A stretch of 64,000 nt of DNA, from the NCBI GenBank assembly GCA_015680685.1, contig MNCI01002682.1, forward strand, positions 62,001 through 126,000, written 5' to 3'. This document shows positions 4,761 to 64,000 of this stretch, one piece after another. Under the pieces are notes generated by a model, which saw nothing but the letters and a program-made list of their open reading frames with translations, ran no database searches and was not told the DNA's origin. The stretch is from Gnetum montanum (taxonomy: Eukaryota; Plantae; Gnetophyta). The position numbers and the translations under genes are program-made. The stretch's first letter is position 1; each line of letters opens with the position of its first letter.

Positions 4761-4761
4761 G

Positions 4762-5070: not shown

Positions 5071-5095
5071 TATAAACAAAGGTTGCTAATAATGA

Positions 5096-14300: not shown

Positions 14301-17300
14301 ATATCGTGTATTTACATGTACTTCTTCCCAAAAGTCGGCAGGAGAAACCCCTCCTACCCTCTGGCCCCGTCCTGGCCGACACAACCTCGGATTGTCAAAC
14401 AACAAAGACATTCGCAACAACAGTAACCAAAACTGACTGCCCAACGCAGATGCATTTTTTGCCCATCCCTGGGCCACGGCTAATAACAACTAAGAAAACA
14501 TAAAGATCTTTAATCTACCATATGCAACCTTGCTAAGCACTTTATCTAAAATGAACTGAAGTTTGACCAAAGCAACAAATGAAGCAGCCTGCTGGAAATC
14601 AACAAACCCGCACTCCACCTGAACACGCTCCGCCTTCGGCAGACACTGTCTTGTCCAGGTGCAACTTCACGACCACCTGACGGATATGCCTGCGAAGCTC
14701 ACCCATGGTGTCTTTGTGTGAATGAAGAGAATAGGAGGTTCAAAGCTTACGTAAGCTTTAAGATAAAATATTCTTTGAATAGAATTTGTTAGAAGGTTCA
14801 AAATTGCCTTGTCTTTGAATTTCTAAGTTTACGTAAGCTTTAAGATAAAATATTCTTTTGAAAGACCGTTCCTGTTATAAGCTAGGAGTAAGTACACCTT
14901 TGTTATTGATAGGGTGCAACTTCTTATAGCTGTCAATTATCTCTTTAATCTGCCCCAAAATATGTTTTTGCAATTCAATCTACCATAATAGCTTCTAAGC
15001 AAGATCTAAATGGTTTGTGAGAATACTAGAAAGGTTTGTGGCAGATCTATGGTTGAATGGTGGGTCTCCTGCTTTGATTCCAGAATTAATGGCTGTAGTG
15101 GTTGCTGGTTATGGTGGGAGTTACACTTAAATGTTGGCAGTTACAGTTAAGCCTGGCCATATGCCGTTATAATCATGCCTGAAATATGGTAGATAATTAA
15201 TGTGGCAGTTACATGTAGGGAATGGCAAACCTTGCATGAGTGCAAGGAAGAGGAAATAACACCCCTCGCTCTCTCATTTGTGAGAGGGGAAGGGAAGAGG
15301 TGGTTCCCAGTTTTTTAGATGGAAGTGAAGGAAGAGATTCATGTTATGAATGTCCATCTAAAATGCAGCTTCGATATTTGGATAGAATTTGTTGTAATTC
15401 TCTTTTTACTTTTGTAACTTCCAGCTTTGTAATCTATTCAAGTTGTGAAATCATCGGTTACTAAAAGGTGTTTCTGAGTTAACAACATGAAAAGATTGTT
15501 GTTTCTCTCCTATAAATTGAAGTGACACTCAACGTCCACATTAGCATTCACATCTTTGCCATATGCATGTGTTAAAGTTGATACTTTTTAACATACCAAC
15601 ATTTTGTAAAAGGATCACAAGTTTGATAGCGGCTTGTAGAACTTCCTCTTCAAGCTAGTAGCTATTCTTCTATCATAAAGCATACCACTTGTTTCTCATC
15701 TATCCTCATGGAATTCTGTTTATTACATCATTATTAATTTCACCGTCCATTTAAAAAAATGATCTCAAGAATCTGAATTGCTTATTTTGAATAACTTCTT
15801 GATTTTAAATTTTAATCTTCATATCTTCATAACTTGCTTTTTTATCCAATATGTATTTCATGTATTCTGTTTTACTTCCATCAATATTTAATTGTTTTGA
15901 TTCTAAAATACTTCTCCAAGTCTTTATCTTCATAGCTAGGCCTTCCTTAAGTTTACCCACCAAAATAGTATTCCTTTGATGCTTAAATTTACCTTAGCTT
16001 ATTGTTTAAATGAAACCGTCCTTGTTTGACGGACCATCAACACAATTAACACTGTTAAGGCATGTTTGGTTAGTTGAATCGTTAAATGTTGAGTCCATAG
16101 TTCATTAATCGGAATACATTACCCTTCTCAAGGTGAATTTTGGAAAGGGAAAAAAACAACAAAAATGGGTACATCTGGTGAGTCTGACAAGAATATGAGA
16201 ATTCATCCATGTAAAACTACACAACCAAATAATTTTTATAACACAAAAGGTGGAACTAAATAATTTTTATAACACAGAAGGTGAAATCTGCAAATTTACT
16301 GCAACCAAAGAACACCCTTAACGGGTGGAATCCGCATATCAGAAATTAATCTCTTAATGAAAGGTTTGGACTTTTGCGGGTTTTGAGTGTGGTTCATGCT
16401 GATGCTTAGACCGTCTGCATGCTGTTCATGAAGCAGGCGGAAACAAGAGTTGTTCTATTTCGACTATTTTGAATCTAGACTTGAAAAAAGAGCTGGCAGG
16501 ACTTGTCAATGAAGCCAGAGGGATTAATTGTGTTCAAGCAAAATCTGTTTATAAAAAATTTTTATTCTAAATAATCATTCGGAACATACTGTTATCATAA
16601 GTAGAGCTGGGCTTTTGCTCGGTAGCATTGTGGTCAGTGGTTAAAGTCCCTTTGTAATTGCTTCGGTGTACGGAGTTTGAATTCCTTTGAGGATCTTCTC
16701 AACTGACTTATATAATAGAACTAGTCCTTTTTTTGAGCCTTGTATCTATTATGCACCATACTTCCGTTGTAGTACGTGGTAACTGTACCATTATTCTTTA
16801 GTTGATAATTTCAATTTTCACATTTCATCAAAGGAGACACCTCTTTATATCACCCGCATTACGGTTTTAACTTTTAGTTATATTATTAATACCGGAAATC
16901 ACATGGTAATTTGTAATGCAGGGTGGCTTGGAGGGTGCTGAAAGGATGAGTAAGAGCGAGCTGCTGATCAAGTTGCTCAAAGAACAAGCTAGTTTAAATA
17001 AACCTTACGGTGCTATCTGTGCATCTCCAGCTGTTGTGCTAGAGAAGCATGGCTTGCTGAGTGTGAGTAAATATCTAATCATTTCCCTTGCAAACATATG
17101 CTTGTTTTCAGAAACATAAACTTTTAAAATTTAACAGTATGATCTATATCTGTGTTTGAGCAGCAAAAGAAGGCTACTACACATCCTATGTTTTCAAAGA
17201 ATCTTTCTGATCAAAGTGAAGTGGAAAAACGCGTTGTGATTGATGGTAATCTGATTACCAGCAGAGGTCCTGGCACAGCTATGGAATATGCCCTAGCAAT

Positions 17301-35315: not shown

Positions 35316-36115
35316 TGATGAGTGATGAGGTATCCCTATGCTCAACCATATGAATATGAGCGTCCATGCACAATCTGGTCGAATTCCAAGGACTAAGTGC
35401 CTATGCGCCTTTGTGGAACAAGAATAAATTGATCAATTGTTGTCTTTCCAAGCTTACTTGTATGTCATGATTGTATGGTTAAGTAAACTTGAGGCATATG
35501 ATTTTTATACTTTTTATGTGTTTTTATGTCTTGCTACTAATAAGGGAGGAGAGAGAGATAGCTGAGTAACTAATTTAATTTGACTACTTATTAACTAGGC
35601 TCTAACTAATCCTAACACTAGTATTTGTTCTCACTTGCTATACACATCCTGAACCAGTGCAACACTACTGGGATTACCAAACGCTAATCATTACTGGGAT
35701 ACCAAGTGGTACACACATGCTCGAAGTGCTTGTACTATGTGTGCTTACATAGGAGAGTTGTAGGGTGAGAGAGAATCATTAATTAACTAAGGAACGCATT
35801 AAGTAACAATAATTAACATTAATTAATCTATTCTGAATGCTGCAAGGTCTATCACAGAGTTCATCTTTATTGCTGTACACAAGGTGTGCTCAAGTACACA
35901 ATGCTCGAATGAAGATCTGTTCACTTTATGACTCCTACTATAGGCACGCAGAAATAATTCTAACTTTGAGAGGAAGAAAAGGCAAGAGTTTGGGTAAGGG
36001 ACTAAGACTAACTATGCAAACCAAGTGCGCTTGCCTCTTATTTATAGGCAATGAGGCAGGTTGTGATATCGCGTGGAAGGTTGCGATATCACGTACGTGA
36101 TATCATGACTCATCA
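35316..36115 (-). repeat. Athila 3' LTR
   Basis: Direct repeat of 42559-43370; tgatgag...ctcatca ends. Confidence 0.9.
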
Positions 36116-42558: not shown

Positions 42559-43370
42559 ATGAGTGGTGAAGTATCCCTATGCTCAACCATAAGAATACAA
42601 GCATCCACGCACGATCCGGTTGAATTCCAAGGACTAAGTGCCTATGCGCCTTTGTGGAACAAGAATGGGTTGATCAATTGTTGTCTTCCCAAGCTTACTT
42701 GTATGTCATGATTGTATGGTTAAGTAAACTTGAGGCATATGATTTTTATACTTTTTATGTGTTTTTATGTCCTGCTACTAATAAGGGAGGAGAGAGAGAT
42801 AGCTAAGTAACTAATTTAATTTGACTACTTATTAACTAGGCTCTAACTAATCCTAACACTAGTATCTGTTCTCACTTGTTGTACACATCCTGAACCAGTG
42901 CAACACTACTGGGATTACCAAACGCTAATTGTTACTAGGTTACCAAGTGTTATATGCATGCTCGAAGTGCTCGTACTATGTGTGCTTACTTAGAAGAGTT
43001 GTAGGGTGAGAGAGAATCATTAATTAACTAAGGAAAGCATTAAGTAATAGTAATTAACATTAATTAATCTATTCTGAATGCTGTAAGGTTTATGACAAAG
43101 TTCGTCTTTATTGCCGTACACAAGGTGTGCTGAGGTACACAATGCTTGAATAAAGATTTGTTCACTTTATGACTCCTACTGTAGGCACGTAGAAATAATT
43201 CTAACTCTAAGAAGGAGAAAAGGCAAGAGTTTGGATAAGGGACTACGACTAACTATGCAAACCAAGTGCGCTCGGCTCTTATTTATAGGCAATGAGGTAG
43301 GCTACGATATCATGTATGCGATATTGGATGGAAGGCTGCAATATCGCGTATGTGATATCATAGCTCATCA
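42559..43370 (-). repeat. Athila 5' LTR
   Basis: Direct repeat of 35316-36115, abutting the PBS. Confidence 0.9.
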
Positions 43371-44166
43371 CTTTATTTGTTCTTTATTGTATAGAAAGCC
43401 TTCTAAGCATTTGCAACTTGCTATACTATATAATACTTGCTATAATATATAATACTTTCCCTTATAATTTTGAGAGTGTTTTACTTTCAAATATTATGTA
43501 ACTAGAATCTCAAGTCTTTTGATATTTAGTTGGAAAGTGTAATCTCTCTTCCTAGATTCACAAATTAGCACACTTTTTTTGTCATCATTCATCTTTATTT
43601 TTGTACATTCACAAAATTTTTATAGTTGATGCAACATTGTGTTTAACCTTGTTTTTGAATTTTCTATTAGCGATACATCATTTGTAAAGATTAAAAGTCA
43701 TTTCCATAATTAATCCACTTTAATCCACTCTTCTAGTTCATTAATAAAAATGTTAAAAAAAGTTGGTGAAAGAGGAAAACCTTGTTTTACTCCTATATTA
43801 CTAAAAAACTAATAATATTGTGGAGTTTCTTCATCCTTAAATTCAAAAAGTGTTTTTTTATACATTTTGGATAGTATTAAGTAAACTAGAAACAACTTTA
43901 ATTTTGATGAGTCTACTCCATAATTATTTTCTCATGACAGACTTAAAAGCTTTAGTAAAATCCATGGAGAAAATAAATGTTTTTCTTTATTTGCCTTGTG
44001 CCTTTTTAATATAATATTTGAGAGCAATCAGATGATCTAGTATAGAATGTTTTTTTTTTCTAAATCCTACTTGTGAAATTACATGTGAATTATTTCCTTC
44101 TGCTTTAGATCTTAATTTTTTCTCTAAAATAGTACCTAACAAATTTGCAAACAAATTACTGATCAT
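43371..44166 (-). mobile_element. Old LINE RT segment (host of both LTR insertions)
   Basis: The minus strand reads GFRK...SILDHLIAL, DFTKAF and IGVKQGFPLSPTFFNIFINELEE. Confidence 0.7.
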
Positions 44167-45834
44167 TGAACACCACTAATTTTGGCCTAACACTTTGAAA
44201 CAAGAACAACTCAGAGCCTCTGGAGCTTTTGGGAGGCAAAAATTTGGCTAAGGCATGTAACTCACGCTAAGCTTGTCAAGCCGGGCTTGCCTGAGTGTCA
44301 GCAACTCCAACAACTTCAAGATCAAGTCAAAGATGGTCCAATCTGAGGGTGCAAGTCATCCTCAAGGGTCAATATTGTCCACTTCAAGTTTCAGCATTCG
44401 GGAGTTCAAATTTTGGGCCAAATTGTAGAAATTGTACAAATTTTCTCACTTACGCTGTGGTCACATTGGCAGCATGAGTCCACGTGACCAACTCTAAGAG
44501 CCTCAAAACTGAGTTAAAATGGTTTGATTTCAAAGGTGTAAGTCATCCTCAGGGTTCATTGTTGATAACCTCAAGTCCCAGCATCCAGAATTCTAGATTT
44601 CAGGTCCAAAATTGCAAAGTTTTTGTAGCTCACGCTGGCAACGTGAGTCCAGCATGAGCTACCAAAAGTGGTTCAAAACAAGGCACATCCAAGCTCAGTT
44701 TTTGACTTGCAGATGACTCTTAGGGTCAACCACAGTCAGGCAATTGTTGCATTCAAGAAACAGGCTTCAAAGGAGCAAAAAATTAGTGTGAAATGTGTCA
44801 TTTTTCTTAGGTCACACTGGCAGCATGAGTACAACATGAGTCCAACATGAGTACTGGTCACGCTTGATCAAAAGCATGCCAAACACATGCTGAGGACATG
44901 CCAAGACAAAATCAACTCACGCTGGAAGCTTTGGTGGAATAGAAATGCCTCAAACAGCCACAAAACCACTCAAAGCAACATCCTGCAGTAGTCAATCCAT
45001 GGATCAAGTGAGCTGGAGTAAATTTCTCTTATTGTACACTATCATTTTTGTAAATTTTCACCATTTGTGAGCTTGTTAAGCTCTTACGCTCCAAATTGTA
45101 TCTATGGGCGTAAGCTAGCTTGCGTAAGCTAACACATGTTGTAAGATACAATGCATCCGGTTAAGAACGTAGTTTTCCTATGCATGTCCAATTCACACAT
45201 AGCTATCTATCAAACACATGTCACATGATCCATTTTCCTCTCGTCTCTTAGCCGTTGATTCCATCCATGAATTTCGTACTCGAGCCTAGCCAAACCTTAT
45301 AAATACCCCGTCCATTCACATAAAGGGAGTTGGAAATTTTGAAGGTTGACGGCTTTGGGAGCATTGACTGGCAACTTTGGATGCTCAGGCACACGTGACT
45401 CCTAGCATCCAAGCACTCGTAAACAAATCACTCTAGGGCTTAGCACTTGACTTACCATTCACACACGCAACTACGCTTTGACCGGTGCACATCTTTTTTT
45501 AAGCAATAGAATAAAGTTCATTATTGCCTTCCATTTACATTGTTTGCTCTATTTATGCTTTGTTTACAATATAGTTTTGTATATGCTCTGTTTGTATTTC
45601 ATGCGTCACTGTTTACATTTTGTACGTCATCAGTTATGATAACCCTAGCGCTAGCCATAGCTTACGCTTGGGGAAGTCCTTGGTTGATTTGCATGTAGAC
45701 CATCTAAGGCACTTTGCCTTCATTTCCTTTTCCAACTTGGCCTCACGCAAAGGTAGAGTTGGCTGTGTCTCTTTGACAATCTTTTGACGTTTATTTTCCC
45801 TTTCAGCCTCACATCGACGATTTCGGTCAGTACA
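44167..45834 (+). repeat. Tat 5' LTR
   Basis: tgaacacc...cagtaca; TATA ttataaata at about 45297; direct repeat of 61247-62947. Confidence 0.93.
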
Positions 45835-46449
45835 GTAAATTGGCGCTAGAAGGAGGGCATACCTATTTACTATCCTATCAAAACGTTGATCACACTACCT
45901 TAAACACCATGCAGGCCAGACACTGAACTCAAGTTGAGCTTGCTCAAGCCTAGGTTGCTTAAGTTCACCCTAGTCTGCTCATGCTAAATCAATCAAGCGT
46001 ACAACCCTTCAAATTCTGCAATCATAACCCAAACAGCATACACATGCTGCCTAAACAAGCCACCTCATATATAGCTTGCCAAGTAACGTTCCCATCACCA
46101 CCATTGACTGATGATTGTGAGCTTCTCTCACCACTTACAACTTGCATCTTGCTTGGCTCATGCTTAGCTTACTCACGCTGAGCTTGGTCACTTAGGCTCA
46201 GCTTACTCACACTAATCCCCACCACTCACGCCCAGCTTGACAAGCTTGCTTGCTCATGCTACTATGAAATCTTCCCACATCAACACAACGATGCTGCAAA
46301 TCTCTGACTTTGGGGTCGGGACCTCGAACCCTGTGACTACGACAGAACCCATAACTGCCATTGAAACAATAAACCCTCAAGGGCCAACTCACCAGTCACT
46401 TAGGCTACAGGGTAGGGACCCTACTTATGCGATCCTCACACTGGAATAA

Positions 46450-49400
46450 TGTAATTTCATTTGTGTGAAGATTCAAGCCAAATTACCTATCGATCGCATA
46501 GAAAGAGAGGCAAAGTGAAACTATGAACTCATCTACAAGGGAGGTTGTGAGTTCACTCCCTTAGCATTTCATATAATTCCCCTTTCTGAGCCCCATCATC
46601 GACTCATATCTCAACTTCTCATGGCGAAGAATCAAACTTGATAGCCACCTTTGATAGAGCCTCAGAGCAAAGATAAGGAAGATGACTTTGCGGCCCAAAC
46701 TGATCATGGAGATTCATACCATACTGTTAGTCCTCATGCCCATACAAACCTATCATTCTAACCTTTCTTGGAAGAGACCATACTTCCTCCTTTATTCGCG
46801 AACACTCAGGCATTAGTTTCTCTATAGGAAGTACCCACTGCCATTCCCACCTTCTCCAGGTCCAACATCTAATCTGATACGTCCATCTCCATCATACCTT
46901 CGTGAGTACAATCCCAAAAATCCCCTTCTCAAACTAATGCAGGATCAATTTTTTGACCTCAAGTAATTGGGATGCCATAAGTTATACTAGCTTCCACGGC
47001 CATCCACTACATACCACAAGTACAAACCCATGGAGCACCTCTGATTACTTCAGCCCAACATGTTCAGGGTGTCACCTCACAACCTATGGTTGGGCAGTGG
47101 GTTGCACCAACTGTCCAGCAACACCAACCTACTCACTATAGCATATCACACCTTGCAATCCCATCTTTTAATGTTGCTCCACCACAACAACTAACAATCC
47201 AACAGCCTCCCTTTCCACAAACAATGCAACAGTTGAATTACTATCAATCACAATCCACTCAACCCATCGGTTTGCCTACCTTCCAAGAGTGGGCAGACAC
47301 AAAAAAATGATGCACTCATTAACTGAGGAGTTATAGCATCTTAAAACTGCAAACACTGAGGAAGTCAAGGTGCTGGACTTCTACCAAGATGACCCAATCC
47401 ACCCTTCAGTTCCACCATTAACCTTGCCAAAGGGAATCTCATTACCTCAACTAACCAAGTATAATGGAAAGGGAGATCCAAACACCCATCTGGTAACATT
47501 TATTTAAGCATTTGTTAAATCAAAACTTTATTATTTGAGCGCTTGTACTTTGAGTCAAGCATTCGCACAAATTAAGAACATAGAAGAGGTGATGCAATCA
47601 AGTAATGACCCAGCTTACTTAGCCTTTAAGAGCTAACATATGAGGAAAGATAAGGATAAATCCAAAACGATGGTAGCGGCGGTGGCCGAGACAACCTGAC
47701 CAAACAATTTAGGACAAAGAGGAAAACAACCCACTACTCCAACCAGTCATGAAAGAACCACATCTACACCTACACCTGAATCTTCCTCAATAAAAATCAC
47801 AAACACGGGTCACACTCGTACATTTGAACGAAAAGATCCTACTCAATACACACCCTTGCCTATGAAGCCTTCACAATTGTTAGATCAACTTCTAAAGTTC
47901 GGGTTAATCCAACACAAACAAATGTCCCCCGTGGCATCCCAAAAACATGATCGATTCTGTGAGTTGGCTAAAAACCCAACTTTAGCAATAGCTAATGAAC
48001 CCCCTATTCCAAGAGGCTTTAGGTTGGATAGGTTTTACGAATATCATCAATGGTGTGGGCACGGAATTGCCTACTGTTTCACCTAAAAACAAGAAATACA
48101 GTGCATGATTGACAAGGGTGAAATAGTATTTGACGAGGCAAACTTGGTAAAGCCTCAAAACCAACCCACGGGGGTCTACAAGGATCCTCTCAATACTAAT
48201 GATGCACCATACGTGATCAACACTATCCATGTGGAGAATGGATAAGGCGTCCCTCAAAAACCTTTTGTAATTTGCAGGTCTTCTAAAACTACACCTACCC
48301 CAATGCCTTCCCAAATCCCTTTCATCATACGCACATTCCCTACACCACAAAATCCATTCGTCATCCGTGTACCTCCCTCTGTTGCAATAGCAACCACACC
48401 ATCAGAAAATCGATCCACTCCCTTCATGATCTGGATGCCAAAACACCCTAACATGCAACTCCCTACCATTCCCCCACGACCCCTACGAGAATGCCTTGCT
48501 GACAAGCTGACAAGAGAGCTTCTGGAAAGAGAACATCATGAGTACAAATTAGGACCACCGAAGCCCATACCGCTAAATGCTATTCCTATGGTTCCGCCCA
48601 CCAGTGAGTCTAGCACAAGTCATGAAGACAAGAATACTGGTACTCCCAGTGTCCCAAACTAGTTGCTAACATAAAAATCCCTCCACAAGAGATATGAATG
48701 CTAGGTCAAATGGACGAAGTCTCCACAGACAAAAGAATTCCAAGTGGTAAGGATTTAGCAAGTGCATTGACCCAAGTCACATAGGCTTTGAAACAAAAGA
48801 ACACCTACTTAAGCCTGTATGATCTAGTAATGACTTCATTGGTACATCGAGAAGCTCTCGTGCGTATGTTGACTTTAATTCCTATTAGTGAGGACCTTCC
48901 CACGGATGAGCCGTCCATTTATGCGGTACTGTCCCCATAACCTCAAGAATCAAGGTCCACATCCCTAGAATTTCGTGCCAATGACATTAAGAGAGATGAG
49001 AAAACAGGAGAGGTCACTACAGCCCCTATGTTCATAATAATACAAGTCAACCACTTCAAGATATGTAGGGTGCATGTTGATGACAGTGCAGCAACAAACG
49101 TAATACCCTTTCCTGTAATCGAAAAACTGGGTCTTATAGAGAAAATACGACCCACAACAACATCTTTTTAAAAATCCTTCAATGGTTCCCATGTCATGGT
49201 AAAAGGCATGTTTACCTTGGATTTTGTAGCAAGGGACTAGTTCCCCACATCGGTTGAATTCGTAGTGGTTGATGAAATGCCAGGGTTCAATCTAATTCTA
49301 GGACGACCTTGGCTAGATCAACTTAGAGCCATATCCTCACCAATCCATCAAGAAATCCACCTACCTTATGAGGGCAGTGAAGTTGTCATACACGGGGACA

Positions 49401-49690
49401 CGACAACATCACTCACTTCCATGCACCCAGGAATGGATCAAGGATCAGAGGTTGAGTTCTCTGATCCTAAACAAGAAACCATGAGCACACTTCAAGACAT
49501 GAAGTAACCATTAACTCGTGATCCTACTAAAACTAAGGAAGCACTGGACGACATCAACATAGGAGCCATTCCCATTGACGTCTCTTGGTCAGAACTACCT
49601 TTTAGCATCTCCAGTGAAGGGGAAGGGAAGTATAAGATCATACCTACATGTCCTACCCCTCACATCAAAGCACGAAAAATAAAAAGATGA
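46450..49690 (+). pseudogene. Tat gag-protease, disrupted
   Basis: KYNGKGDPNTHL gag motif (about 47460), degenerate C-x2-H-x4-H-x4-C knuckle (YEYHQWCGHGIAYC), protease RVHVDDSAATNVIP and FNLILGRPWL. Confidence 0.8.
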
Positions 49691-49715
49691 CTCAATAGCT
49701 AGAGCAAACTTCACT

Positions 49716-49965
49716 AGCGTTCGGAATGACATTAAACTACCAACCGTCTAGTATGACGTTAAACTGCTAGCGAATGTCTGCAATGACATTAAACTAGCCA
49801 CGATCAGAAATGGCCAGTTTCTTTTGAGTTCCCCAAAACTGTTATCGCTTTTGGCCCACTATGGCCTAAAACTAGTAATCCCTCATTCTTTTCTTTCAAC
49901 ACAAATACAAGTCCACCATGACTTTAAACTGATGTGCACAGCCCGAAATGGCCTTAAACTAGAGC
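49716..49965 (+). ncRNA. Array A of predicted pseudoknot units (about 6)
   Basis: Repeated nGTC/GCC-stem-A-Y-GAC/GGC-NN-TAAAC-T-stem' units with complementary, variable stems. Confidence 0.55.
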
Positions 49966-50368
49966 TTAGTAAGTCGCAAGTTTACAAACTTTCATTACGT
50001 TATGTCAAATTTTCATTTACATGTCATAAGTTATAATTTCAATTAGTGCATTCTTGTTACTTTTTCCTTTTACAAATATTTGCCTTACGTTTCGTTCTAC
50101 ATTTTGAAATCTCATTTTACGTTCAGCTACATGCATATGTTCACAATATACCTAAGAAAACAAGAAAAACAACGAAAAAAAATAAAATGAGAAAACATAT
50201 AAAAATAAATAAATCTTGAACGCCAATATGGTAATAGAATTCCAACACATTATGCCATGATTAGATCCATATCATTATATCTATCCATCATATATTTCCA
50301 TTAAACATCCAAAAATCCAAAACATTTAATAACTAAAGCCGGATTAACAGTTAGCTCATGCATTAGTA

Positions 50369-53300
50369 CTAGGAGGCGGGCTGGCCTCCAAAATCCTCCT
50401 CACCATTCACTCTCGCTCCACTGGGGCTAGCCTCATCATTACTAGGTCCCTATAATAGAACAAAAAAGAAAAAATAGGTAAGCATAACAAAACAACTCAT
50501 AAATACAAAACTCGAAAGAAAAAGTAACACTAACACTAAAAACAACAAAACCATACAAAAGTAAGCACCATAATAAAATACTCACAGGAGAAGAAGGCCT
50601 TAGGCTAGCTTCCAAGCGCCGTAGAATCTCCTCCTTGGGCACATTTGCCAAATCCTCCTCTAGGCCAAGATCAATACCAACCAAGGTTTTACCCTTGTCC
50701 ACTGAGGTCCAGGTAGGGTGCTCAAGAGAGAACATGCTTATCGAAGCCTCCCCGGAGGCGGTGGTAATGGTTCTCTCAGGAGATCCCTCTACTTTAGTGC
50801 ACTTGACGAACCTATTGTAAGCAAGACGCAAGGCTAGTCCATCAATAAAAATTTCCATCTGGCGATGTTCAACTGATTCCTCCTTTAACCACTTCTTGTA
50901 CTGGTGCTTGTGATCCTTTTGATCTTGACCCCACTTCCGTACTTTAGTAGCAAAGGATTTCCAATCATGACATTTCCTGTTTAGCAAATCCATATGTGCC
51001 CTTTGTTCTGCTAAATAGTGTGTCACCTGTACTTTGCTGTTCAAAACTGTCCAGTAATGTGCATAGGTGATCCCAGATGTGCGCCAAGTACTATCACTAG
51101 ACAGCCTAGTAGTAGCAAAATCATAACGGGATTGAAGGTCCCTCTTCTCCTCTTGCTCCTTGGCAATGTTTCCTTCAATGAGTGCACCTCATCCCATAGG
51201 TACTCAACTGAATGCCTACAAGTCCAAAGCGACTTAGCGTTTTGTATGACACAACCGGAAACTGCGTCGTAAACCTTTCTAGGGACTTGTTCAATATTCC
51301 TTGGCAATTCAAGGAGGGCATTAATATGAGTAGCCTCAGAAGGATCCCATTGAAGTTTGGCGCCTGCAAGTATGAGTACCGCACACATGAATCAGCTGTA
51401 ATTAACAATGAACACAAAGAAACACAATAAACGCAGACACTTAGCATAATACATAATGTATACATACCTAGTTCTGGATGAGCTTGTTCTAGGCAAGTGA
51501 CTTTATCATTAACGATGCTCGTGACAAAGTCCATTTTGTTGGGCATTTTAGGCCATGGCCTCAGCTGGTCAGTAGTTATTGGATAAGCATGGGAAGTCAC
51601 CTCAACTGAGGCCTGTGCCCCTGACACCTTTGCCCAGGATGTATGTGCCTCAGAAACCTCAGCATCTACCTATGGTGCTAGAAATAATCAAGATAATCAA
51701 AAACAACACATAAAAGTTAAAGGGTACAAAATATGGATCAAGCTAAAAGGAACATACCAAAAAGCCCTTTGCTGGTTAGTTTGGGATGATCACCAAGGTG
51801 CAAGGACCCATCGAGAAAACCATTGAATACACCCCTCTCATTGCTTGAATGCCTAAGTTCATCCAAAGCCTCAATGAGCTTTGATCCCATGATGCTTGTT
51901 ACATTTTCTTCTTGCGAGACAGGGGGTTTCTTGATTGCTTCTTCCCCCTCTTTTTCTTCTTCTTTTGGCCCTGTAATGATCACTTTTGGTTCAACCATCG
52001 GGGCCAAGGCTTCTCTTTCCCTCTCAAGGCTTTTCTTCGATAATACCAGTATTTTGATGTTAGCATGACATAGTACATACATTTAATAAACATATAAATT
52101 AAAATGAAAAAATAAAATATATAAAAATAAAATAAAATACTTACCATCCATTGGCAATACAAAGTGAATCCTCTTCGCTCTTGGTGGTCTCACCTCAGGA
52201 GCAGGCTCCCTTGGGCATTTAGCTCTCTTCACCTTCGCCTTAGATCTCCCAACAGTCTCATGAATTAGACATTCAGCTCTCCTAGGAGATGTATGCAGTC
52301 TAGGTGGTTCCAATCCCAAGCTATCATGGGAATGATGGGAACGACTAGCTGCACCCCCAGTAGTAATGGACACTGACTCATCAATGCCTTAAGGTGGGTC
52401 CTGAGATCTAGTAGTACTAAAAAAATGGTGAATCTAGGGGCGAGATAGCTATGAGTGATCCCTCAATATATAACGGCTATCACCATAAAGTACTAAAAAC
52501 TCAACAAATCTACGTAGGTAACCTGCGAAGAAGGCAAATGTGAAATGGGACTTGGTGCTAGTGTTCGAGCGTAATCTAACGATCTCTTCACGAAAGCCAG
52601 ACCCAATAAATTGTGTCCAATTATAACACATGCCTATCTCTAGGACTGCACGTATGGTACGTGCAAACTCAATCCCAAGGTTTCTTCCTTGAGAAAGAGA
52701 TTTAGGAAATGCTTATGCTTGAAAGAGAGGGTACAAGAAGTTCACCTCCATTGATTGAGTATCATCTTGCATGGCAAAAACTTTGGGACCCCAAGACACA
52801 CCTAACCAATCTTCAAGCTCCTTTATGATTTGGCTTTCTTTAGTCACTTTATCTACTGCCACTCTGGTGTCATCCATAGGCATGCCAAAGAGATTGGAAA
52901 GGAACTCAGCAGTCAGGTGAAAAGACACCTTGACTCCTCGAACCCGCGTAGTGAAATGAGAAGCATCATTGCTAAAATAATCAACAATGGTAACCATTTC
53001 AGTAGCCAAGATATTAGAAGTCAGAGCAGTGAACAAGTCCATCAAACCCGTATGGGTAAGACGGCTGATGATTAACTCAGAAGCCTTCGTTTGCAACCAT
53101 TTTTGTGATTGTTCTGTCTCTCCATACTTCATGAAAAGAGTGGCTTGAGTACGCCTTGATACGAAAGTAACTTCATCATAAGAGATGACTGTTGTAGAAA
53201 AAACATAGAGCGAAATGTTAAAAACATAGTACACGATAATGCAACAAAGAGAAAATGTAGTCTAGAATGTGATCATTTACCATCAGTAAATGGTGTAGGT

Positions 53301-54590
53301 GGATTAGGTACAAGATCAATTCTCTGAGGAAAAATTGGCCCATTGGAGGACCAATCCTCATGCAACCAACCATGAACTTGAAAATGTTCAAAAGCCGTTG
53401 AGAATTGCCTATTGTAGTCAACAATAGCACCTCTTGTTTGGTCTAGTACCGTAGCATGAAGAGTGGGGTCCACCATGAATGCCTCCAATGCTGTGCATGC
53501 TAAGGCAAGCCCACTGTCATCATCACGCATCACATTCTCATTGAAACAAGGCTTGCATAAAAGAATAATTTTTATGCATAGACAACGATATAATTTTAGA
53601 AGAATTGAAAATCAAGCAAAGCACAAAAGAGCATACCTGTCCACTTTATACACTGTCCTAGGTGGGTTTTGGAACAACGTGTGAACATGAAAAGCTAGAA
53701 AAAGTGTGTTATTGCTGCTATAATGGCTACAGATAGGCAGTTCCCATACATGAGTCAAAGGATGAGTAGACCTAGGACCCTTAGGAGGGCCTCCCTCAAT
53801 TGTAAAAAATCCCTCGTCTATGTTAGTAATGAAGGCAAGCATGTCTTGTGTAGATCCAGGCAACATTGTTTCAACCATATCACGGGCCAATTGTTCACTT
53901 AAATGAGACCATATAACTACGCTGAAACTTTGTAAAATGAATGACAAAAATGCACCAACACTAGGATGGAACCATATCACATGAGGCCCAATATGCATGT
54001 CATAAGGAGGTATGTCTGGTCCAAAGGGTCCAAACCAAGCAAGCACACCAACGAGCTCAACCACAAGGAGGGAAGGTTTAGGTCCCCTGCATATAGCCAA
54101 AACTTTAGATAAGTAAAGGGTTTGAGTGCTCAACATAACATGTAACTACATAAACCAAACACATATATAATATTTAATATATAGTTCTACCCATGGGACA
54201 AGGACACGAATATTTATTTGGTGTATTCAATGCTTACTAGGGTACATCGAAATCTCTTACACAAGTAACATAAAATGAACACGCAAGTATAAAACCATGA
54301 ACATTCATAGATTCGACATAAACATAGAAACGTGGAAACATATTTAAAATCATCTATCCAAACAAGAAAACAATAAACAGTGTATACATAAGCTCCAACA
54401 AAAAGTAAAGATTTCAGCAAACAATTCACACCTTTGCATTTTTACACAGGCTAGGCACGCTCACATTACCAGCAAATACACCAAGCTTTGACACATAAAA
54501 CTCACTAAAAATCAATTGCTGCTTTCTCTTAAACGTAAAAGACCTAGCTCACCTCACGGCAGACACTGAACTTCAAAGCTCTCCCCATGG
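50369..54590 (-). pseudogene. Antisense multi-exon accessory gene of the Tat element: dead FCP1/NIF (HAD) domain + plant-transposon-protein-like domain + charged helical C-terminus
   Basis: Minus-strand ORF blocks 54129-53637, about 53552-53280, 53188-52145, about 52037-51758, about 51677-51468, about 51396-51125, about 51037-50586 and 50450-50369. They are bounded mostly by GT/AG with T-rich introns. A few stops fit methyl-C decay. Confidence 0.7.
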
Positions 54591-56077
54591 TCGATTGATT
54601 TTCCTGACACTCAAAACTTGGCAAAAACTAGGATCGTTGTGGCCCGTATATAGGACAGTCAAAGAAAAATTGATAACAAAAAAAAAAAGAGAAGAAGAGG
54701 AAGCTCGACGAAAGAAAACGCCGCATATGAGAAGCCCACGTTGTGTGCTCACGTTGTGTGCTCACGTTGGGCGTACCCTGCAACAATACGCCCTGGAACA
54801 TGCCTTGGGAAACTCATGCCCTAGAGCTCACACTGGGCGTGCCCTAGTCGGGAAAACACAGACTTTCATTAGCCCCTGTGGTTGCATGTAGTGCGCGTTG
54901 GCAATGAGTTCATCGTGGTATTTGCCCTCAACGCAAGATATTTTCGCAAGTGCAACATTCAAGCAGTTGCAGCAAGATCACAAAAGCAAGGCTCTTAAGC
55001 AGCTGAGTTGAAGTAAACTGACCAGAAATTACAGATTGATCGAGAAAATATCAAATTGCTGCCATCAGAACAATGGCTGTGAACGATTCCCCCTAAGCTA
55101 ACTCATGTTGTGATCTTCCCTGGGCACTCATGCCTTGGAAACTCATGCCCTGGAACTCACGCTAGAGCCTTCCCTGGCACTCACGCTACACCTACCCTGG
55201 TTTGAAAAATGAAAAAGAAACCTAACTCGCCCTAATTTGACCATGCACGCCTGAAAGATGACAAAAATACAGCAAGGCATAAACCCCAGTACAAGCCCTG
55301 ATGTCCCAAAACACGGTAGAAAAACCCAAAATCGCACTAAGAAAACAACATAAAATGATGTCCATGAGAGACCATGTTGCCCTAGCTAACACTATGCACA
55401 AAATACTGGAAAGAAACAAGAAGAAATGGACCTACGTAGAGCTCCATCCCATGCTGGAATTCTGGCTTGAGGGAGATGCTGAAGTAGCTCTTCACTCTCC
55501 TCCACGAACGCCAGATTTGCTTGCCTCTTCTCTTTGCCTCAGCTTGCTTTTGCTTTGCTCTTCATTACTGGTCCTATAACTTATGCTGCAACTCATGCCA
55601 ACGCTCATGCTACACTCTCTAGCTTTCTCACGCTACAATCCAAATTCCCAAGAGCTCACGCTAGCATAAATGACACCCCTTTACCTCAAAATCGCCTTTT
55701 TAACTCCCATCTTCATTTCCATTTTGTTTATTTATTTTATTTAGTAATTTATCATGTTTCAGGATTAACTTTTCCTTTCATATTATTATTTACATCATCT
55801 TTATTTCATTCTTACATAGTATTCCTCATTATTTCATTCTTTGGAGATAAAGTCAAAATGTTAAAGATGGCAAAAATAAAATAGAGGGGGGAAGAGAGAA
55901 AGGTTAAAATCAAAATGAAATGATGAAAAAAATATAGATATATATAAATATATAGAAAAATATATATAGTGGCATGCATAAAAATCCATAAGACTATAAA
56001 ATCCCATAAACTTGTTGTTCGCATGAAACATAGAAATTAACAATATTCTGTACACTCATTCATAACACTGAATATTA

Positions 56078-56135
56078 CCAGCCCGGTATGGCCTAAAACT
56101 GCCATGTGGTCCAGGTATGACACTAAACTACCACT
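56078..56135 (+). ncRNA. Array B of predicted pseudoknot units (2) upstream of pol
   Basis: agccc-ggta-t-ggcc-taaaac-tgcc and ggtcc-aggta-t-gaca-ctaaac-tacc. Confidence 0.5.
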
Positions 56136-56256
56136 ATGATCCTCAATTTAGTTAGTACATATATTAATTACCTGATGCTCGTTTGCATTTAACAATTCCC
56201 TCGTCAAGCCAATGTCACTCACTTCGCTCCTAGTTTAAATTGGCAGGAGCGAGCAC

Positions 56257-59200
56257 ATGGCCACTAAGAATATCTTTTCAACATTGTCTCTCAGTGGACC
56301 ACATGGAGAAGTAAAAAGAGTAATGAAGATAGAATCCTTGGATCTAGACCCATATGCTTACACTAATTTAATGGCCTCCATTCAGGAAACGTCATATTGG
56401 TCTAAAAATGTGGCTAAGATTTTAGATCTAGAGGCCGATAATATTACTGAAGATCCTCTCATTGAAGTCCCCATTATTACATCCAATGATGAAACTAAAA
56501 CATTGAAATTAAGTGCTCTACTAGACTCACAACTTGTCAGTGACATCACTCAAGTACTAAAAGATGATATAAAAATATTTGCATGGTCATATACCGACAT
56601 GCCAGGGTTGGACCCTCGAATCGTCCAACATAACATTATCCTTGATGAAAAAGTCAAACCCGTGAAGCAAAAGGTATGAAAGGTTAGACCTAAAGTGGCA
56701 TTAGCAGTCCGCAATGAAATCACAAAGCTCTACCAAGTCGGTTTCATCCGAGCCGTTGACTATTCCGATTAGGTATCAAACATTGTCGTAGTCCCTAAGA
56801 AGAACGGTAGTATACACATATGCATTGACTTTCATGATCTTAACATAGCCACTATCAAGGATGACTTCCTGCTACCTAGTATCAATCAACTTATTGACAC
56901 AACTGCTGGGCACACTCTATTATCCTTTATGGATGGATTTTCAGGATATAATCAAATAAGAATCAACCTAGAACATCAACTCAGGACAACCTTTATGACA
57001 CCTTGGGGCACATTCTGATATACAATGATGTCGTTTGGTCTTAAAAATGTAGGCGCTACATATCAACAAGCAATGACATATATATTTAGCGATTACATGC
57101 TCAATTTGCTCAATGATTATGTTGATGACATTGCGGTTAACTCCAAAACAACCGAACAACATGCAAAAGATCTAGACTTAGTGCTTAAACGTTGTCTCAA
57201 ACATGACCTCAGACTCAATCCAAAGAAGTGTGTCTTTGGTGTCAAAACAGGCAAATTGCTTGGCTTCATAATCTCTAACAAAGGGATACGAGTAGACCCT
57301 GATAAGGTTAAGGCAATAACTAACATGCAACCACCAAAAAACTTTACCAAACTACGTGGTCTACAAGGTAGGTTACAATTCATTAGACACTTTATTGCAA
57401 ATCTGACAGATAGGTTGAGACCCATGCAACACCTACTATGAAAGAATGTGCATTTCCAATGGACTCAACAATGCCAGGAAGCATTTGAGGACATAAAGCA
57501 AGAGTTGGCTCAAATCTCGACGGTTTATCCCCCACAAAGCGATAAACCCTTCTACATCTACCTTGCGACCTCCGATTCTTCCATTGCATCGATGCTTTGC
57601 GAAAAACATGAAGATGGAATCGAGATTCCTATATATTACTTAAGCCATGCTCTAATCACCTATGAAAAATGATACAATGACGTGGAGAGATCATGCCTTG
57701 ACCTTGTGTTCTCCTTGAAGAAATGGTGGCATTATCTCTTCCGTAATCAAGTCTACATCATTTGCAAGAATAATGTGCTCCGTGCCATCAATAGCAACAT
57801 CTACGAGTCAAGTAGGATAGCCAAATGGAAAGCAATGATTGCAAAGTTTGACCTACACTATGTTGCTCAATCCTCCACAAAAGGTCAAGTAATTGTCACA
57901 CAATTGACCGTCTCGCCAATGCATGATCAAGGAACGATTAACCCTGAATTCCATGATGAGAATGTTAACAGTATAGACACCGTACCTGATAACTATGAGG
58001 TGATCCTTTATTTTGATGGAGCTTCAACTTTCCAAGGAGGAAGTTTTGTGGCCATTTTAGCATACCCCTCTGGAGAAATTCGAACCTTCGCCTACTAATT
58101 GATCTTTCCTTGTACCAATAAAATGGCAGAATACGAAGGTCTTCTTAGAGGTCTTCAAGCAGCATTGACTTCGGGAATCGCACATCTTGTAGTTTGAGGC
58201 AATTCACAGTTAGTCATTAATCAAGTCACAGAAGTTTATGCATGCAAGGCTCTCCATTTGCAACCATATTGTGATTTGACCAAATATTTGCTGAAGCAAT
58301 TAGTAGACGTGGATATACAACATGTCCCTAGAAGCGAAAATCCCGTTGCTGATGCACTCGCTACATTAGCCCTAAACATGACACCTGAAATGTTCTATGT
58401 GTTGCCCAGCTCTATAACAGATTATGCCAAACCTATAACCGACGCTCTCGATGAAATGACCATAGCATTCGTTAGCACAACACATGAAATAAAATGGTAC
58501 GATGACATAAAAGAGTACCTTCTACAAGGCAAACCTCCACAACATTTAACAAACGTTCAAAAGGATGCAGTGCAAAAATGCTCTTGGCAATATGCATTAA
58601 TAGGAGACACATTGTGTCGCAGATCCTATGAAGGCATTCTGTTGATGTGCGTTAGTAGCATCGACAGTCAAACAATTGTAGAACAAGTCCACGAAGGACT
58701 TTGTGGAAGGCACATAGCATCCAAAGCAATGGCAACAAAGATTAGGCATTTGGGCTACTACTGGCCACACGTGGAGTACGATTGCTTCTCCAGGGTCAGG
58801 ACATGTGACATTTGCCAAAGGCACGGTAACCTAATACATGTGCCACCTAATGAATAGCACACAACACAAATCACATGGCCATTCCAAAGATGGGGATTAG
58901 ACTTAATTGGACCGATAACGCCGCCATCTTCCGCAGGGCATATCTTCATTATCACTACAATTGAATACTTCACAAAATGGGTAAAAGCTATTCCCCTCAG
59001 GAAGACCACCTCTAAACATGTTTGTACTTTCATAATAGGAAACATCATGACCTGTTTTGGTATTTTGATGACCATCGTTACCGATAATGGGCCACAGTTC
59101 AGCAGTGTGGATACTAAGAGCTTCTATGAAATCCTGGGTATTAAACATGCATTCTCGTCACCTTACTACTCATAGAGCAATGGTCAAGCGGAGGATACAA

Positions 59201-59717
59201 ACAAAATTGTCATCATAGTGCTTAAAAAGATGCTAAATCAGAGCAAGAGGCGATGGCACGAATAACTAGTTTATGCATTTTGGGCATACAAAACGACACA
59301 TCGAACATCTATAGGTAAAACTCCATATAATCTTGTATACGGATTTGAAGCTATAGGTAAAACTCGTTGTGGATAGTTCTCTCAGGGCTCCTCGATGAAA
59401 GCCAAAGTGATGAACTGCACATTGCTGACCTTGACTCGGTGGAGGAGGAACGTGTGCGAACGCTTGATCAGATTGAGTGGTACCAGAAACAACAATGGCA
59501 ACGACATAAACACGATCTGCAAAAACACTCGATTAAGGAAGGAGACCTAGTCCTTAAGGGCATCTGTGAACATCCAGACAAATTCTTAGCTAACTGGAAA
59601 GGACCTTACTTAGTCACCAAGGCGTACAATAACGGAGCATTCAAATTTGCTGACATGGACAGGAATGAGTTCGCTAATCCTACAAATCACCTGTACCTGA
59701 AATGATACTATGTCTGA
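56257..59717 (+). pseudogene. Tat pol: RT - RNase H - archaeal-type RNase H - integrase, disrupted
   Basis: FAWSYTDMPGLDP; SFMDGFSGYNQI; YVDDI; LNPKKCVFGV..GKLLGFII; aRH LYFDGAS...AEYEGL..GL...SQLVINQV...HVPRSENPVADALA; integrase HEGLCG.H...GYYWP...C..CQ, WGLDLIGP, IVTDNGPQF. Confidence 0.93.
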
Positions 59718-59734
59718 TGAACTTGAGGTATGTA

Positions 59735-60066
59735 ATGGTCCTGGCATCACAACCTAAAACTGATACCATAGAACGGTCCTAGGGCTATGACTTGAAACTG
59801 GCACCACAGAGTGTCCTAGAGTCATGACGGTAAACTGACACCATAGAGCTCCATCTGGTATAACACTAAACTACCACATTTGTTGGCCATGACGTAAAAC
59901 TAGCATGCAGAGTCCACTAAGAATATAAATTGGTTTGCCTCTTCACAGTCCGCTATGACTATAAACTAGCACTGCACCATCTGCTACGATGCTAAACTAG
60001 CATCGTCCAAAGGGTTATGATGTGAAACTAACCTGCAACAGTATGCTAAGACTATAAACTGGTGAC
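59735..60066 (+). ncRNA. Array C of predicted pseudoknot units (about 10) immediately after the integrase stop
   Basis: Ten units, about 30-37 nt apart, with a conserved A-YGACNNTAAAC-T core, variable complementary flanks and an upstream GTC-like strand. Confidence 0.6.
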
Positions 60067-61246
60067 ATCATCAATGACCAGGCAATACTTGAAAAGATAT
60101 GTTGCGGCTATTGGCTGTATGTGTTTCACAAAGACTTGCTGCATAATGGACCCTGATGAAGCTGATGCTATTCATGATCCTATCTGCTTTGAAATTGCAG
60201 ACGGTGGCTCTATCTCCTTGGTTATTTTCAAGTTAAGGTGCTTAGTTAATCGAATCATTTGTGGTTTTCTTGTCCTCTTGGAGTTGTGTTTACAGGATGA
60301 CACACCCGAGGCATTCGTGCATAGATGCACTTCATCATGATGACAAGGTATCACATTCCTCTTGATGCACACAATTGGGTTAATCAATCCATTCATAAGT
60401 ACATTCTTGACTCTTGATACATTCCGTATTCCCCATCATGTTCCCCTTATCTCATTCAATTATACCCCCTTGATAAATTTGACTCACCCCAAAGCTCTTG
60501 GTACACTATTGCATACTATGATTCTCTAAGTAATTGCAACGCAAAACACAGTACATAGTACATGATACAAATGCAAACGCATGAGCATGAGTATAGCATT
60601 GAAAGCAAGCTCTTCCAAAAAGAACAAAAAAACAAGAAGAAAAGAAAAACAAAAAGAAAAGAAAAGCAAACAAAAAGAAAAAGAATAAAAAGATCAAACA
60701 ACAAAATGCACAGAAAAGGTCTTCATGACCCCGTGGACATCATAGACCAAAGACCATTTGCTCTTCTCATATAAGCCCTAGGTAGGAAGGCAATCGTCTT
60801 AGAAAGAAAGTTACACTCGTGTCTCAAAAGGTCATGTTGCACATCATCGCGTGGCTTTGGCTATTTATAATGGTCCCCCGTAAACACTCTACAAGTGTCC
60901 CATTTCTCCAAAGAACAAACATTTTATGTCTTAGTTCCGAGTCTGCTAAACACTGGCTATTGACAAGGATAAAAAATATGGCTCATTCACAGGAGAGCAT
61001 TCCTCTCCCATAATTCCAATAGTAATTATAATCCTTGATTAACTCCTGATTTCCCCCTAGTTACAACCAATCCCCTTGCATATTGAACTACATTTTCCCA
61101 TTCCCATGTACTTTTGAACATGGCGTGATGACATCCAGCCAAGGGTCGACGGATAATGCTTGTTACTTGGTTGGTCATGGTGTTTTGTACTTCTTTGTCA
61201 ATGCCTCTCAGGTGGATTCCTCCAAACGTCAACAAAGAAGGGCTAA

Positions 61247-62947
61247 TGAACACCACTAATTTTGGCCTAACACTTTGAAACAAGAACAACTCAAAGCCTC
61301 TTGAGCTTTTGGGAGGCAAAAATTTGGCTAAGGCATGTAACTCACTTTGAGCTTGTCAAGCTGGGCTTGCCCTCAGCCTCAGCAACTCCAACAACTTCAA
61401 GATCAAGTCAAAGATGGTCCAATCTAAGGGTGCAAGTCATCCTCAAGGATCACTGTTGTCCACTTCAAGTTTCAGCATTCGGGAGTTCAAATTTTGGGCC
61501 AAATTATAGAAATTGTACAAATTTTCTCACTTACGCTGTGGTCACGCTGGTAGTGTGAGTCCAGTGTGACCAACTCTGAGAGCCTCAAAACCAAGTCGAA
61601 ATGGTTTGATTTCAAAGGTGCAAGTCATGCTGAAGGTTCATTGTTGACAACCTCAAGTCCCAGCGTCTAGAATTCTAGATTTCAGGTCCAAAATTGCAAA
61701 TTTTTTGTAGCTCATGCTGTGGTCACGCTGAGCCCACACTGGTAGCATGAGTCCAACATGAGCTACCAAAAGTGATTTAAAACAAGGCACATCCAAGCTT
61801 AATTTTTGACTTGTAGATCACTCTCGGGGTTAACCACAGTCAGGCAATTTTTGCATTCAAGAAACAGGCTTCAAAGGAGCAAAAATTGGTGTGAAATGTG
61901 TCATTTTTCTCAGGTCATGCTGAGGTCAGTTTGGCAGTGTGAGTACAGCGTGAATCCAACGTGAGTATTGGTCACACCCGGTCAAAAGCATGCCAAACAC
62001 ATGCTGAGGACACACCAAGACAAAATCAATTCACATTAGAAGCTTTGGTGGAATAGAAATGCCTCAAACAGCCACAAAACCACTCAAATCAACATCTTGT
62101 AATAGTCAATCCATGGATCAAGCGAGTCAGAGTCAATTTCTCTTGTTGTACACTATCATTTTTGTAAATTTTCACCATTTGTGAGCTTGTCAAGCTCTTA
62201 CACTCCAAATTGTATCTGTGGGCGTAAGCTAGCTTGCATAAGCTAACACATGTTGTAAGATGCAGTGCATCTGGTGAAGAATGTAGCTTGCCTATGCATG
62301 TCCAATTCACACACAGCTGTCTATCAAACACATGTCACATGATCCATTTTCCTCTCATCTCTTAGCCATTGATTCCATCCATTAATTCCGTGACCGAGCC
62401 TAGCCAAACCTTATAAATACCCTGTCCATTCACATAAAGGGGGTTCACAATTTTGAAGGTTGATGGCTTTGGAAGCATTGATTGGAAACTTTGGACGCTC
62501 AGGCACACGTGACTCCTAGCATCCAAGCACCCATAAACAAATCACTTCGGGGCTTAACGCTTGATTTTCCATTCACACACACAACTACGCTTTGACTGGT
62601 GCACATATTTTTTAAGCAATAGAATATAGTTCATTATTACCTTCCATTTACATTGTTTGATTTGTTTATGCTTTGTTTACAATACAGTTTTGTATATGCT
62701 CTATTTGTATTTCGTGCGTCACTGTTTATATTTTGTACATCATCAATTATGATAACCCTAGCACTAGCCATAGCTTACACTCAGGGAAGTCCTTGGTTGA
62801 TTTGCATGCAGACCATCCAAGGCACTCTGCCTTCGTTTCCTTTTCCAGCTTGCCCTCATGCGAAGGCAGGGTCAGCTGTGTCTCTTCGACAATCTTTCGA
62901 TGTTTGTTTTCCCTTCCTGCCTCACATTGACGATTTTGGTCAGTAAA
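61247..62947 (+). repeat. Tat 3' LTR
   Basis: Direct repeat of 44167-45834; terminal CA mutated to AA; followed by TSD ATCAT. Confidence 0.93.
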
Positions 62948-64000
62948 ATCATGATAAATATTTAATTATTTAAATATGATTTGTATCCATTTTTTTAAAT
63001 TCATAATAACTCTAACAAAATTCCACTATCTAGTCAAACCATTTTGAACTCCTTCATTAAGCCTTTTCCATGTTTCTCTCCAGACTAACTTTCCACCACA
63101 TTTTAATAATTCTGCTTACAATCCTTTTGCATCTACAACTTTTCTAGAAGTTAATTTCTCAATCCATATACTATTTCATCATACATAAGCTATAAAATAT
63201 ATAAGAGCATGCAACTAGTTATGGTATTTGTCTTGTGATGAAACAAATTTTTGTAAAACCCTTTATGTTTGAAAATGAAATATCATTACTAGAGAAACTT
63301 TATTTCTAAAAAGGTTTCCAAAAATTTTGTGGATATTTCTTTAATATTAGAAAAAAATAGAGCACATCATATTATATTAATAACAAACAAACACCAAAAC
63401 AATAACAAAAAGGCAAGACCCAATGATTTTGGGAATGCCCTTGTAGATCTTCATCTTTATAACTAATCTTTAAAATCCTTTCCTTTGGTGTCACAAAAAG
63501 AGATGCTGGAACACAAAAGAATGACTCCACTCTAAGACATATAGCCAAGAAAGTATATTTGAAGAATTTTAGAGGAATATAAAAATGCATCAAGTGCAAT
63601 TTATATTGGTAACCTCTTGAAGGTAGAGAGCTAATCAACTAAGCCACATATCATGAGTTTTCTACAACAAGGTTACTTCAATTTACTTTAACCCTTTGAA
63701 ACACACCAAATCTAGAACGTATACAAGATAATTTAATTGCAAGAAAACAAGAGAGCTAGCTATTTTTTATTAATTTTGAAAGAAGATTATAAATACATTG
63801 GATCCATAGACCCACAAAACATCATACCAAAACACTCATATGCTCAACAATATTCCAAAGTAGGAGGCTCTACAACCACTCATAGGATGGACCTTAATGC
63901 AAGGTACAATTGAACTAGACCTCTTTCTCATACATAAGATTGAGATCCAAGCATAGAGATACAATGGCCAATATCACATACATGATTGACTGATAAGATG
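62948..64000 (-). mobile_element. Old LINE, upstream part (continuation of 43371-44166)
   Basis: Joins across the ATCAT TSD; same strand-biased decayed LINE composition. Confidence 0.5.

Follow-up and report, generated by a model that had tools for sequence, protein, structure and literature searches.

The closest described relatives of the RNA units reported here are the coremin, or xrRNA-C, elements of beny-, cucumo- and other viruses, which lie behind stop codons, come in tandem pairs in some viruses and combine a hairpin of 3-4 bp with an AAACU spacer at a 10-nt register (PMC6546385, PMC10520033). The requirements described for viral coremin are a short hairpin with a YGAD or YGNNAD loop, a second hairpin, and correct positioning of spacer residues A16-A20 (PMC6546385, PMC10520033, PMC10321173). 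In xrRNA-WCC, canonical pairing between loop and spacer (6-20, 7-19 and 8-18) produces an H-type pseudoknot with a tetraloop and an essential first loop G (G5) (PMC10321173). The second hairpin is needed in vitro for the Xrn1 resistance of both viral coremin and its Watson-Crick variant; the latter still promotes frameshifting without it, and ordinary frameshift pseudoknots of such size do not stall Xrn1, so that the fold alone does not prove a function (PMC10321173). A 2021 review describes xrRNAs as characterised only in viruses, and states that the nuclease resistance of the benyvirus element is not accounted for by the accepted model with two hairpins (PMC8374639). In the literature searched, which leaves out most subscription journals, we found no report of coremin or an xrRNA for a retrotransposon.

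Three more distant systems share part of this architecture. The luteoviral -1 frameshift pseudoknots (BWYV, PLRV) have the same compact H-type form, with a short loop 1 and an A-rich minor-groove loop, but lie in coding sequence 3' of a slippery site and fail to stall Xrn1, whereas the units described below are non-coding (PMC10321173). Class 3 xrRNAs of Tombusviridae and Solemoviridae are likewise pseudoknot-based nuclease barriers of plant viruses, built however on a different and larger fold, in which two helices stack and a network resembles that of a tRNA elbow; a term search of that paper returned no mention of coremin or retrotransposons (PMC12397905). Finally, tandem arrays 3' of pol that grow by duplication are reported in the long non-chromoviral Tat/Ogre/Retand elements, as repeats of primary sequence that are particular to each family and whose function is unknown (PMC11963269, PMC6317226). 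The units of the present element differ from these in that structure is kept over sequence, and in that their motif is common to unrelated elements and viruses.

The units that we describe sit in a plant nuclear LTR retrotransposon, in arrays of 2-10, which brings a coremin-type element into a nuclear retrotransposon family of high copy number and hence into a new genomic setting. As in coremin, the first hairpin has at least 3 bp and closes with a 5' pyrimidine - 3' purine pair. Seven of 13 hexaloops read YGNNAD, four read YANNAD with a compensated partner and two depart at one end, while the other 5 of the 18 units have loops of 7-11 nt; loops of 10-11 nt and the YANNAD type fall outside the range of the published tests. 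One unit loop, CGAAAU, is a loop that proved resistant in a viral context, and spacer length and A16-U19 likewise agree with the tested viral rules (PMC10520033, PMC6546385). The spacer reads AAACT in 17 of 18 units and AAATT in one, at the exact 10-nt distance to U19 in all of them. Position 20 is A in 10 of 18 units and G in the remaining 8, each G facing a loop pyrimidine, and a pairing change at this position was tolerated in one published mutant (PMC10321173). With respect to xrRNA-WCC, 17 of 18 units have a pyrimidine as their first loop base, and pairing starts at U19, leaving C18 unpaired, with a longer stem and a different register.

A second hairpin past the spacer is not enriched (5 of 18 units against a 24% background; 10 of 20 anchors against 29% with a looser test), the same test being a weak discriminator that recovers it in 11 of 23 RNA-virus units. 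Most units have at least four canonical stem-2 pairs, with loops of up to 11 nt. Given this longer canonical stem 2 and the lack of a consistent second hairpin, we predict that the units work like coremin and do not file them as members. The coremin likeness proposed in an earlier sequence-only reading of this DNA is supported, as the published hexaloop rules are followed (PMC10520033) and a Watson-Crick coremin variant exists (PMC10321173). No Rfam model matched the arrays with an E-value up to 10; in 9 viral loci tRNAs were the sole matches, and 20 further loci gave none.

The host element and its three arrays

The window, i.e. the whole stretch of 64,000 nucleotides of Gnetum montanum DNA that was analysed, contains a decayed yet complete LTR retrotransposon at 44167-62947 (Table 1). 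Its LTRs are 89% identical (K2P 0.103; 132 transitions and 26 transversions over 1668 columns), and we take its primer-binding site to be of the tRNA-Arg type, as in Ogre. Pfam matches in pol (RVT_1, RT_RNaseH, RVT_3, Integrase_H2C2, rve) follow the domain order of Tat-clade Ty3/gypsy elements, RVT_3 sitting between RT_RNaseH and integrase as the second RNase H that marks Tat. The succession of RT, RNase H, second RNase H and integrase is the Ogre/Retand order (PMC6317226); for that narrower placement the features seen are the closest proteins, plant Tat elements that are mostly 27-39% identical, and an antisense extra ORF located between protease and RT. The family is present in high copy, with 11,313-14,423 contigs per run matching 700 nt around array B (four runs, four organism labels); the window copy itself is decayed and probably silent.

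Table 1. Coordinates of the retrotransposon, its coding remains and its predicted pseudoknot units in the window
Feature	Position	Strand	Remarks
Target-site duplication, 5 bp	44162-44166 and 62948-62952		
5' LTR, TG...CA ends	44167..45834	+	TATA-like box at 45298
Primer-binding site	45841..45857	+	6 nt past the LTR
Decayed gag-protease frame, end	49069..49690	+	stop at 49688-49690
Array A, 6 hexaloop units	49718..49963	+	starts 49718, 49745, 49775, 49853, 49910, 49940
Antisense extra ORF remains, apparently multi-exon	50442..54145	-	between protease and RT
Array C, 2 units	56080..56132	+	about 125 nt 5' of the first ATG (56257) of the RT frame
Decayed pol: RT, RNase H, second (archaeal-type) RNase H, integrase	56239..59717	+	several in-frame stops; natural stop 59715-59717
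Array B, units 1-3	59737..59839	+	10-nt loops, extended stem 2, 37-38-nt period
Array B, units 4-8, hexaloop	59852..60001	+	59947-59970 and 59978-60001 fully paired in both stems
Array B, units 9 (11-nt loop) and 10 (hexaloop)	60004..60063	+	
Polypurine tract	61234..61246	+	
3' LTR	61247..62947	+	

Protease-like motifs were identified by eye in the gag-protease frame, the pieces of which gave no Pfam match when tested. The 6.5 kb between protease and RT are occupied by the remains of the antisense ORF, for which Pfam gave no match at a useful E-value and Atlas matches stayed below 0.9, plant-leaning and with a weak ATHILA lead. Intron-like breaks were observed within this ORF. At the other end of pol, the window copy carries an extra in-frame stop (59703-59705); several homologues (P0023, P0026, P0031, P0037) terminate 3-4 residues past the stop-free piece, and 59717 therefore fits as the natural end of the frame.

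Altogether 18 units were counted, six in array A, two in array C and ten in array B; the sequence-only reading, which had proposed about 18 units overall and about ten just past the pol stop, had not listed the pair of array C. The first stem of array B begins 19 nt 3' of the pol stop and its units follow with fixed anchor spacing; array A starts about 28 nt 3' of the gag-protease stop, behind which some 13 kb of the element remain. Weak candidates near 49691-49713, 49970-49993 and 60066-60092 were left out of the count. Each unit consists of stem 1, a loop of 6-11 nt, stem 1', a spacer ending in AAAC, and a strand complementary to the 3' portion of the loop. The predicted fold has a stem 1 of 3-4 bp and a stem 2 of at least 4 bp with an invariant A-U pair, and in 18 of 18 units stem 2 begins at the same 10-nt register, counted from stem 1'.

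Conserved cores amid divergent flanks, as had been described, are clearly visible, with 75% identity in the core and 27% in random-like linkers. A model trained on 13 units recovered 17 of the 18 as its top 17 matches in the window, four untrained ones included, and missed only B9; a two-unit pattern gave 3 window matches and none in 100 shuffles. Bare core motifs alone were not clearly above chance in the window. The claim that these are not simple tandem repeats agrees with the random-like linkers around a fixed register, but units B1-B3 are at the same time a detectable 37-nt tandem repeat. That repeat, and the gain and loss of units among sister contigs, indicate that duplication enlarges the arrays. 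In nested folding the array does not stand out (z 0.21). With a flexible pseudoknot score the arrays differed only modestly from background (mean 6.05 vs 4.28, with many of its sites equally high), and fixed-register tests were used for that reason.

A candidate 3' splice acceptor, with its AG at about 56245-56246 (within 56225-56260), lies immediately 5' of the RT frame. Ogre elements splice between protease and RT, and if the present element did so too, arrays A and C would stand at the two ends of the intron. Elsewhere in the window, inverted repeats of 254 and 67 nt (97-100%) flank a 262-codon frame at 2726-5071, likely a small DNA transposon or fold-back, and a second pair of direct repeats (35318-35617 and 42559-42858, 95% identical, 7.2 kb apart) is probably another LTR element, at which we found no units.

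Covariation and the pseudoknot register

Over the 18 units, stem 2 (positions 2-4) is Watson-Crick at 41 of 54 places against 24.1 expected when 3' strands are swapped among units (p<1e-4), and stem 1 at 56 of 72 against 44.8 (p 0.0007), or 62 of 72 when G-U is included; as the units of an array are relatives, these permutation p-values overstate independence. The earlier claim that both stems covary therefore stands for the whole set, and all the stem-1 and stem-2 examples quoted for it are present in the sequence. Within array B alone it holds for stem 2 (25 of 30 vs 15.8, p 0.0005), and stem 1 stays below significance (29 of 40 vs 25.4, p 0.09). In the 13 hexaloop units 85.6% of cells are paired, with 18 two-sided changes that affect 6 of the 8 pairs, a result that none of 500 shuffles matched; slid registers gave 11-50%.

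Most mismatches had been attributed to methyl-C decay, which proves right for many of them. Of 217 variant places in sister contigs 40 were listed, and 22 of these fall in array B: 6 replace a mismatch by a pair, 5 a wobble by a Watson-Crick pair and 3 match the conserved loop or spacer letters, while 6 are unpaired, 1 weakens a pair and 1 breaks a pair unless compensated. This leaves 14 changes toward pairing or conserved letters, 6 unpaired and 2 against, which supports decay for many of the mismatches. Most closing-pair mismatches, too, are paired in the majority of sister depth. Decay does not account for the four loops with A in second place, which all face T and so form a compensated pair (YANNAD, 4 of 4), for the purine-A apposition in three array-A units, which is of the viral non-canonical type, or for 2 of the 5 stem-1 mismatches, which are not transition-type.

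A wider comparison used 374 distinct hexaloop units from 203 loci. Here the fourth loop base covaries strongly with the base after U19 (MI 0.68; A-A 164, C-G 107, G-A 49), and the outer stem-1 pair, which was not selected for, is Watson-Crick in 65% vs 29%; with one unit per cluster the values are 0.40, and 53% vs 26%. These data suggest that a purine-A or a Watson-Crick pair adjoins the invariant A-U, an arrangement that agrees with a published proposal of a G-A pair (PMC10321173). Outside the window, stem 2 past its first two pairs reaches 0.47 and the off-register control 0.43, and because the control is nearly as high the pair beyond this position is less secure. The covariation of the arrays yields a specific, testable pseudoknot register, for which the fully paired natural units of 24 nt are good targets of structure determination.

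The same unit in other elements, viruses and bacteria

A metagenome motif scan returned at least 124 stretches, equal to at least 121 loci in at least 76 clusters. An intact chromodomain-bearing Ty3/gypsy element (L123, the same as L129) has two units starting about 10 nt past its pol stop, and two other chromoviruses (L101, L153) carry units just inside the 3' LTR; from their domain type we infer that the three are fungal. Three chromoviruses found protein-first (L204-L206) lack the unit, L204 covering only about 150 nt past the stop, which shows that not all elements need it. Among the metagenome matches listed, a cluster of 21 LTR-like loci bears arrays of up to 15 units, which at 8 of these loci start 28-226 nt past a polypurine tract and TG. 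A repeat family at L108, L109, L118, L136, L143 and 16 related soil loci has arrays of 3-15 units that begin shortly inside an LTR-like end. Because the copia-type RT of L148 is on the strand opposite its array, the 21-locus cluster was not placed in a superfamily.

RNA viruses carry the unit as well: among the matches listed, it occurs at eight loci with RdRP or capsid domains, several of them with tandem units, which favours a role at the RNA level. Placement is also informative. Among the matches listed, 18 of 36 long-ORF loci have it between -25 and +90 nt of a sense stop, where 2.8 would be expected, and the antisense-strand control gives 2 against 0.9; L124, L129 and L140 were left out of this count as duplicates, and Pfam was run on 126 of the 147 selected ORFs, omitting overlapping frames and duplicates. 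A phage-like contig (L078:2991-3590) has about 15 units behind a stop, 10 of which pass the strict filter, with a long and well-covarying stem 2. In bacterial genomes a GTDB scan found single coremin-type hexaloop units (L207-L245), often 5-20 nt past a stop; 33 of the 39 matches are in Bacillota/Mollicutes, organisms that possess RNase J, and one phytoplasma chromosome has five copies.

Two-stem covariation and the recurrence of the unit after pol stops in unrelated LTR elements together make well supported the earlier proposal that each unit is an H-type pseudoknot that was selected as RNA. A viral two-unit scan (82 stretches) contained no retrotransposon. Neither viral contigs nor a search with longer proteins gave Tat relatives with DNA context, and blastn had no match in the metagenome loci, so that no second Tat family was seen with its DNA context.

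Several loci show peculiarities of their own. L093 and six related loci have arrays of up to about 22 units in which the hexaloop type is mixed with one whose middle stem-1 pair is flipped, a type also present in the LTR of chromovirus L101. In L123, a 238-codon frame antisense to pol (4080-4796, +) lies in the LTR region just past the two units. L146 and L157 are long palindromic contigs with arrays in both arms, possibly amplification chimeras.

A proposed decay barrier and its competitors

We lean, if only somewhat, towards a reading in which the arrays act in sense RNA as serial roadblocks of coremin-type H-pseudoknots to a host 5'-to-3' exoribonuclease, which in plants we infer to be XRN4. 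Fold and selection are deduced from covariation, whereas this function is deduced from the likeness to tested viral elements and from position. Mechanistically, decay after decapping or after the last ribosome would digest the coding region until the enzyme halts at the first intact unit just 3' of the stop codon, and further units would catch the read-through. Array B would leave a non-coding 3'UTR-LTR RNA of about 3 kb, and arrays A and C longer RNAs bearing RT-integrase, all 3' co-terminal; reverse transcriptase, coming from the 3' side, would open the knot. The protected RNAs could serve as a decoy against silencing, as packaging substrate or for translation. Since Xrn1 matters for the packaging of yeast Ty1 (PMC12786077), and EVD shows a coupling between decay and silencing (PMC8892269), a selective pressure of this kind is plausible. 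Some of the repeat arrays in Tat 3' regions, whose role is described as unknown (PMC11963269), would thereby also gain a possible function.

More tentatively, and with a little less than even confidence, we propose a general picture in which plant and fungal LTR retrotransposons carry working coremin-type xrRNA arrays behind stops, nuclear, in very high copy and yielding overlooked subgenomic RNAs. Natural variation would then give the coremin register, and one motif would act against Xrn and RNase J across domains; xrRNAs are reported to block RNase J1 as well (PMC8374639).

As the main alternative, the same knots might stall scanning ribosomes after termination, or a 5'-to-3' helicase of the UPF1 type, and so limit reinitiation or NMD on long 3' UTRs. 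In extracts of reticulocytes and of wheat germ, coremin does stall scanning ribosomes (PMC10520033), and the Watson-Crick variant affects ribosomes even in the absence of the second hairpin (PMC10321173), which the window units mostly lack. The arrays starting 19 and 28 nt past two stops, one of them followed by about 13 kb, would also suit this reading. We consider it unlikely nonetheless: the pair 5' of RT does not follow a sense stop, fungal LTR arrays begin tens to hundreds of nt past the polypurine tract, phages and bacteria have copies and no NMD, and the block of UPF1 is itself conjecture.

Distinctly less probable are repeated RNA structures that bind protein, whether Gag in packaging or dimerisation, a factor of nuclear export or a host protein, the number of copies determining avidity. 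Mouse LTR elements contain structured export elements (PMC12786077), but viral coremin works protein-free in vitro (PMC6546385). Although a high number of units, gained and lost among sisters, would be expected of such sites, RNA viruses, phages, bacteria, and fungal-type and plant LTR elements would all need one common ligand.

A neutral, drifted tandem repeat of the Tat/Ogre/Retand type, or an array acting on DNA through transcription factors, for which the TGACG-like and TAAAC-like sites in the units would presumably serve, is very improbable and largely refuted. Arrays of this sort are widespread, with a function that is unknown (PMC11963269, PMC6317226), B1-B3 are a tandem repeat, and some fungal-type arrays lie in the LTR; drift or DNA binding, however, predicts neither two-sided changes in two crossing stems, nor random-like linkers around a fixed register, nor strand-specific post-stop placement and presence in RNA viruses. 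Hardly any credence can be given to a recoding signal for frameshifting or stop read-through, since, for all the luteoviral-like dimensions of the units and the -1 frameshifting that coremin promotes (PMC10321173), 18 of 18 units lie outside ORFs, further stops follow each stop, and the only slippery heptamer, upstream of 1 of 18 units, is the preceding unit's own spacer.
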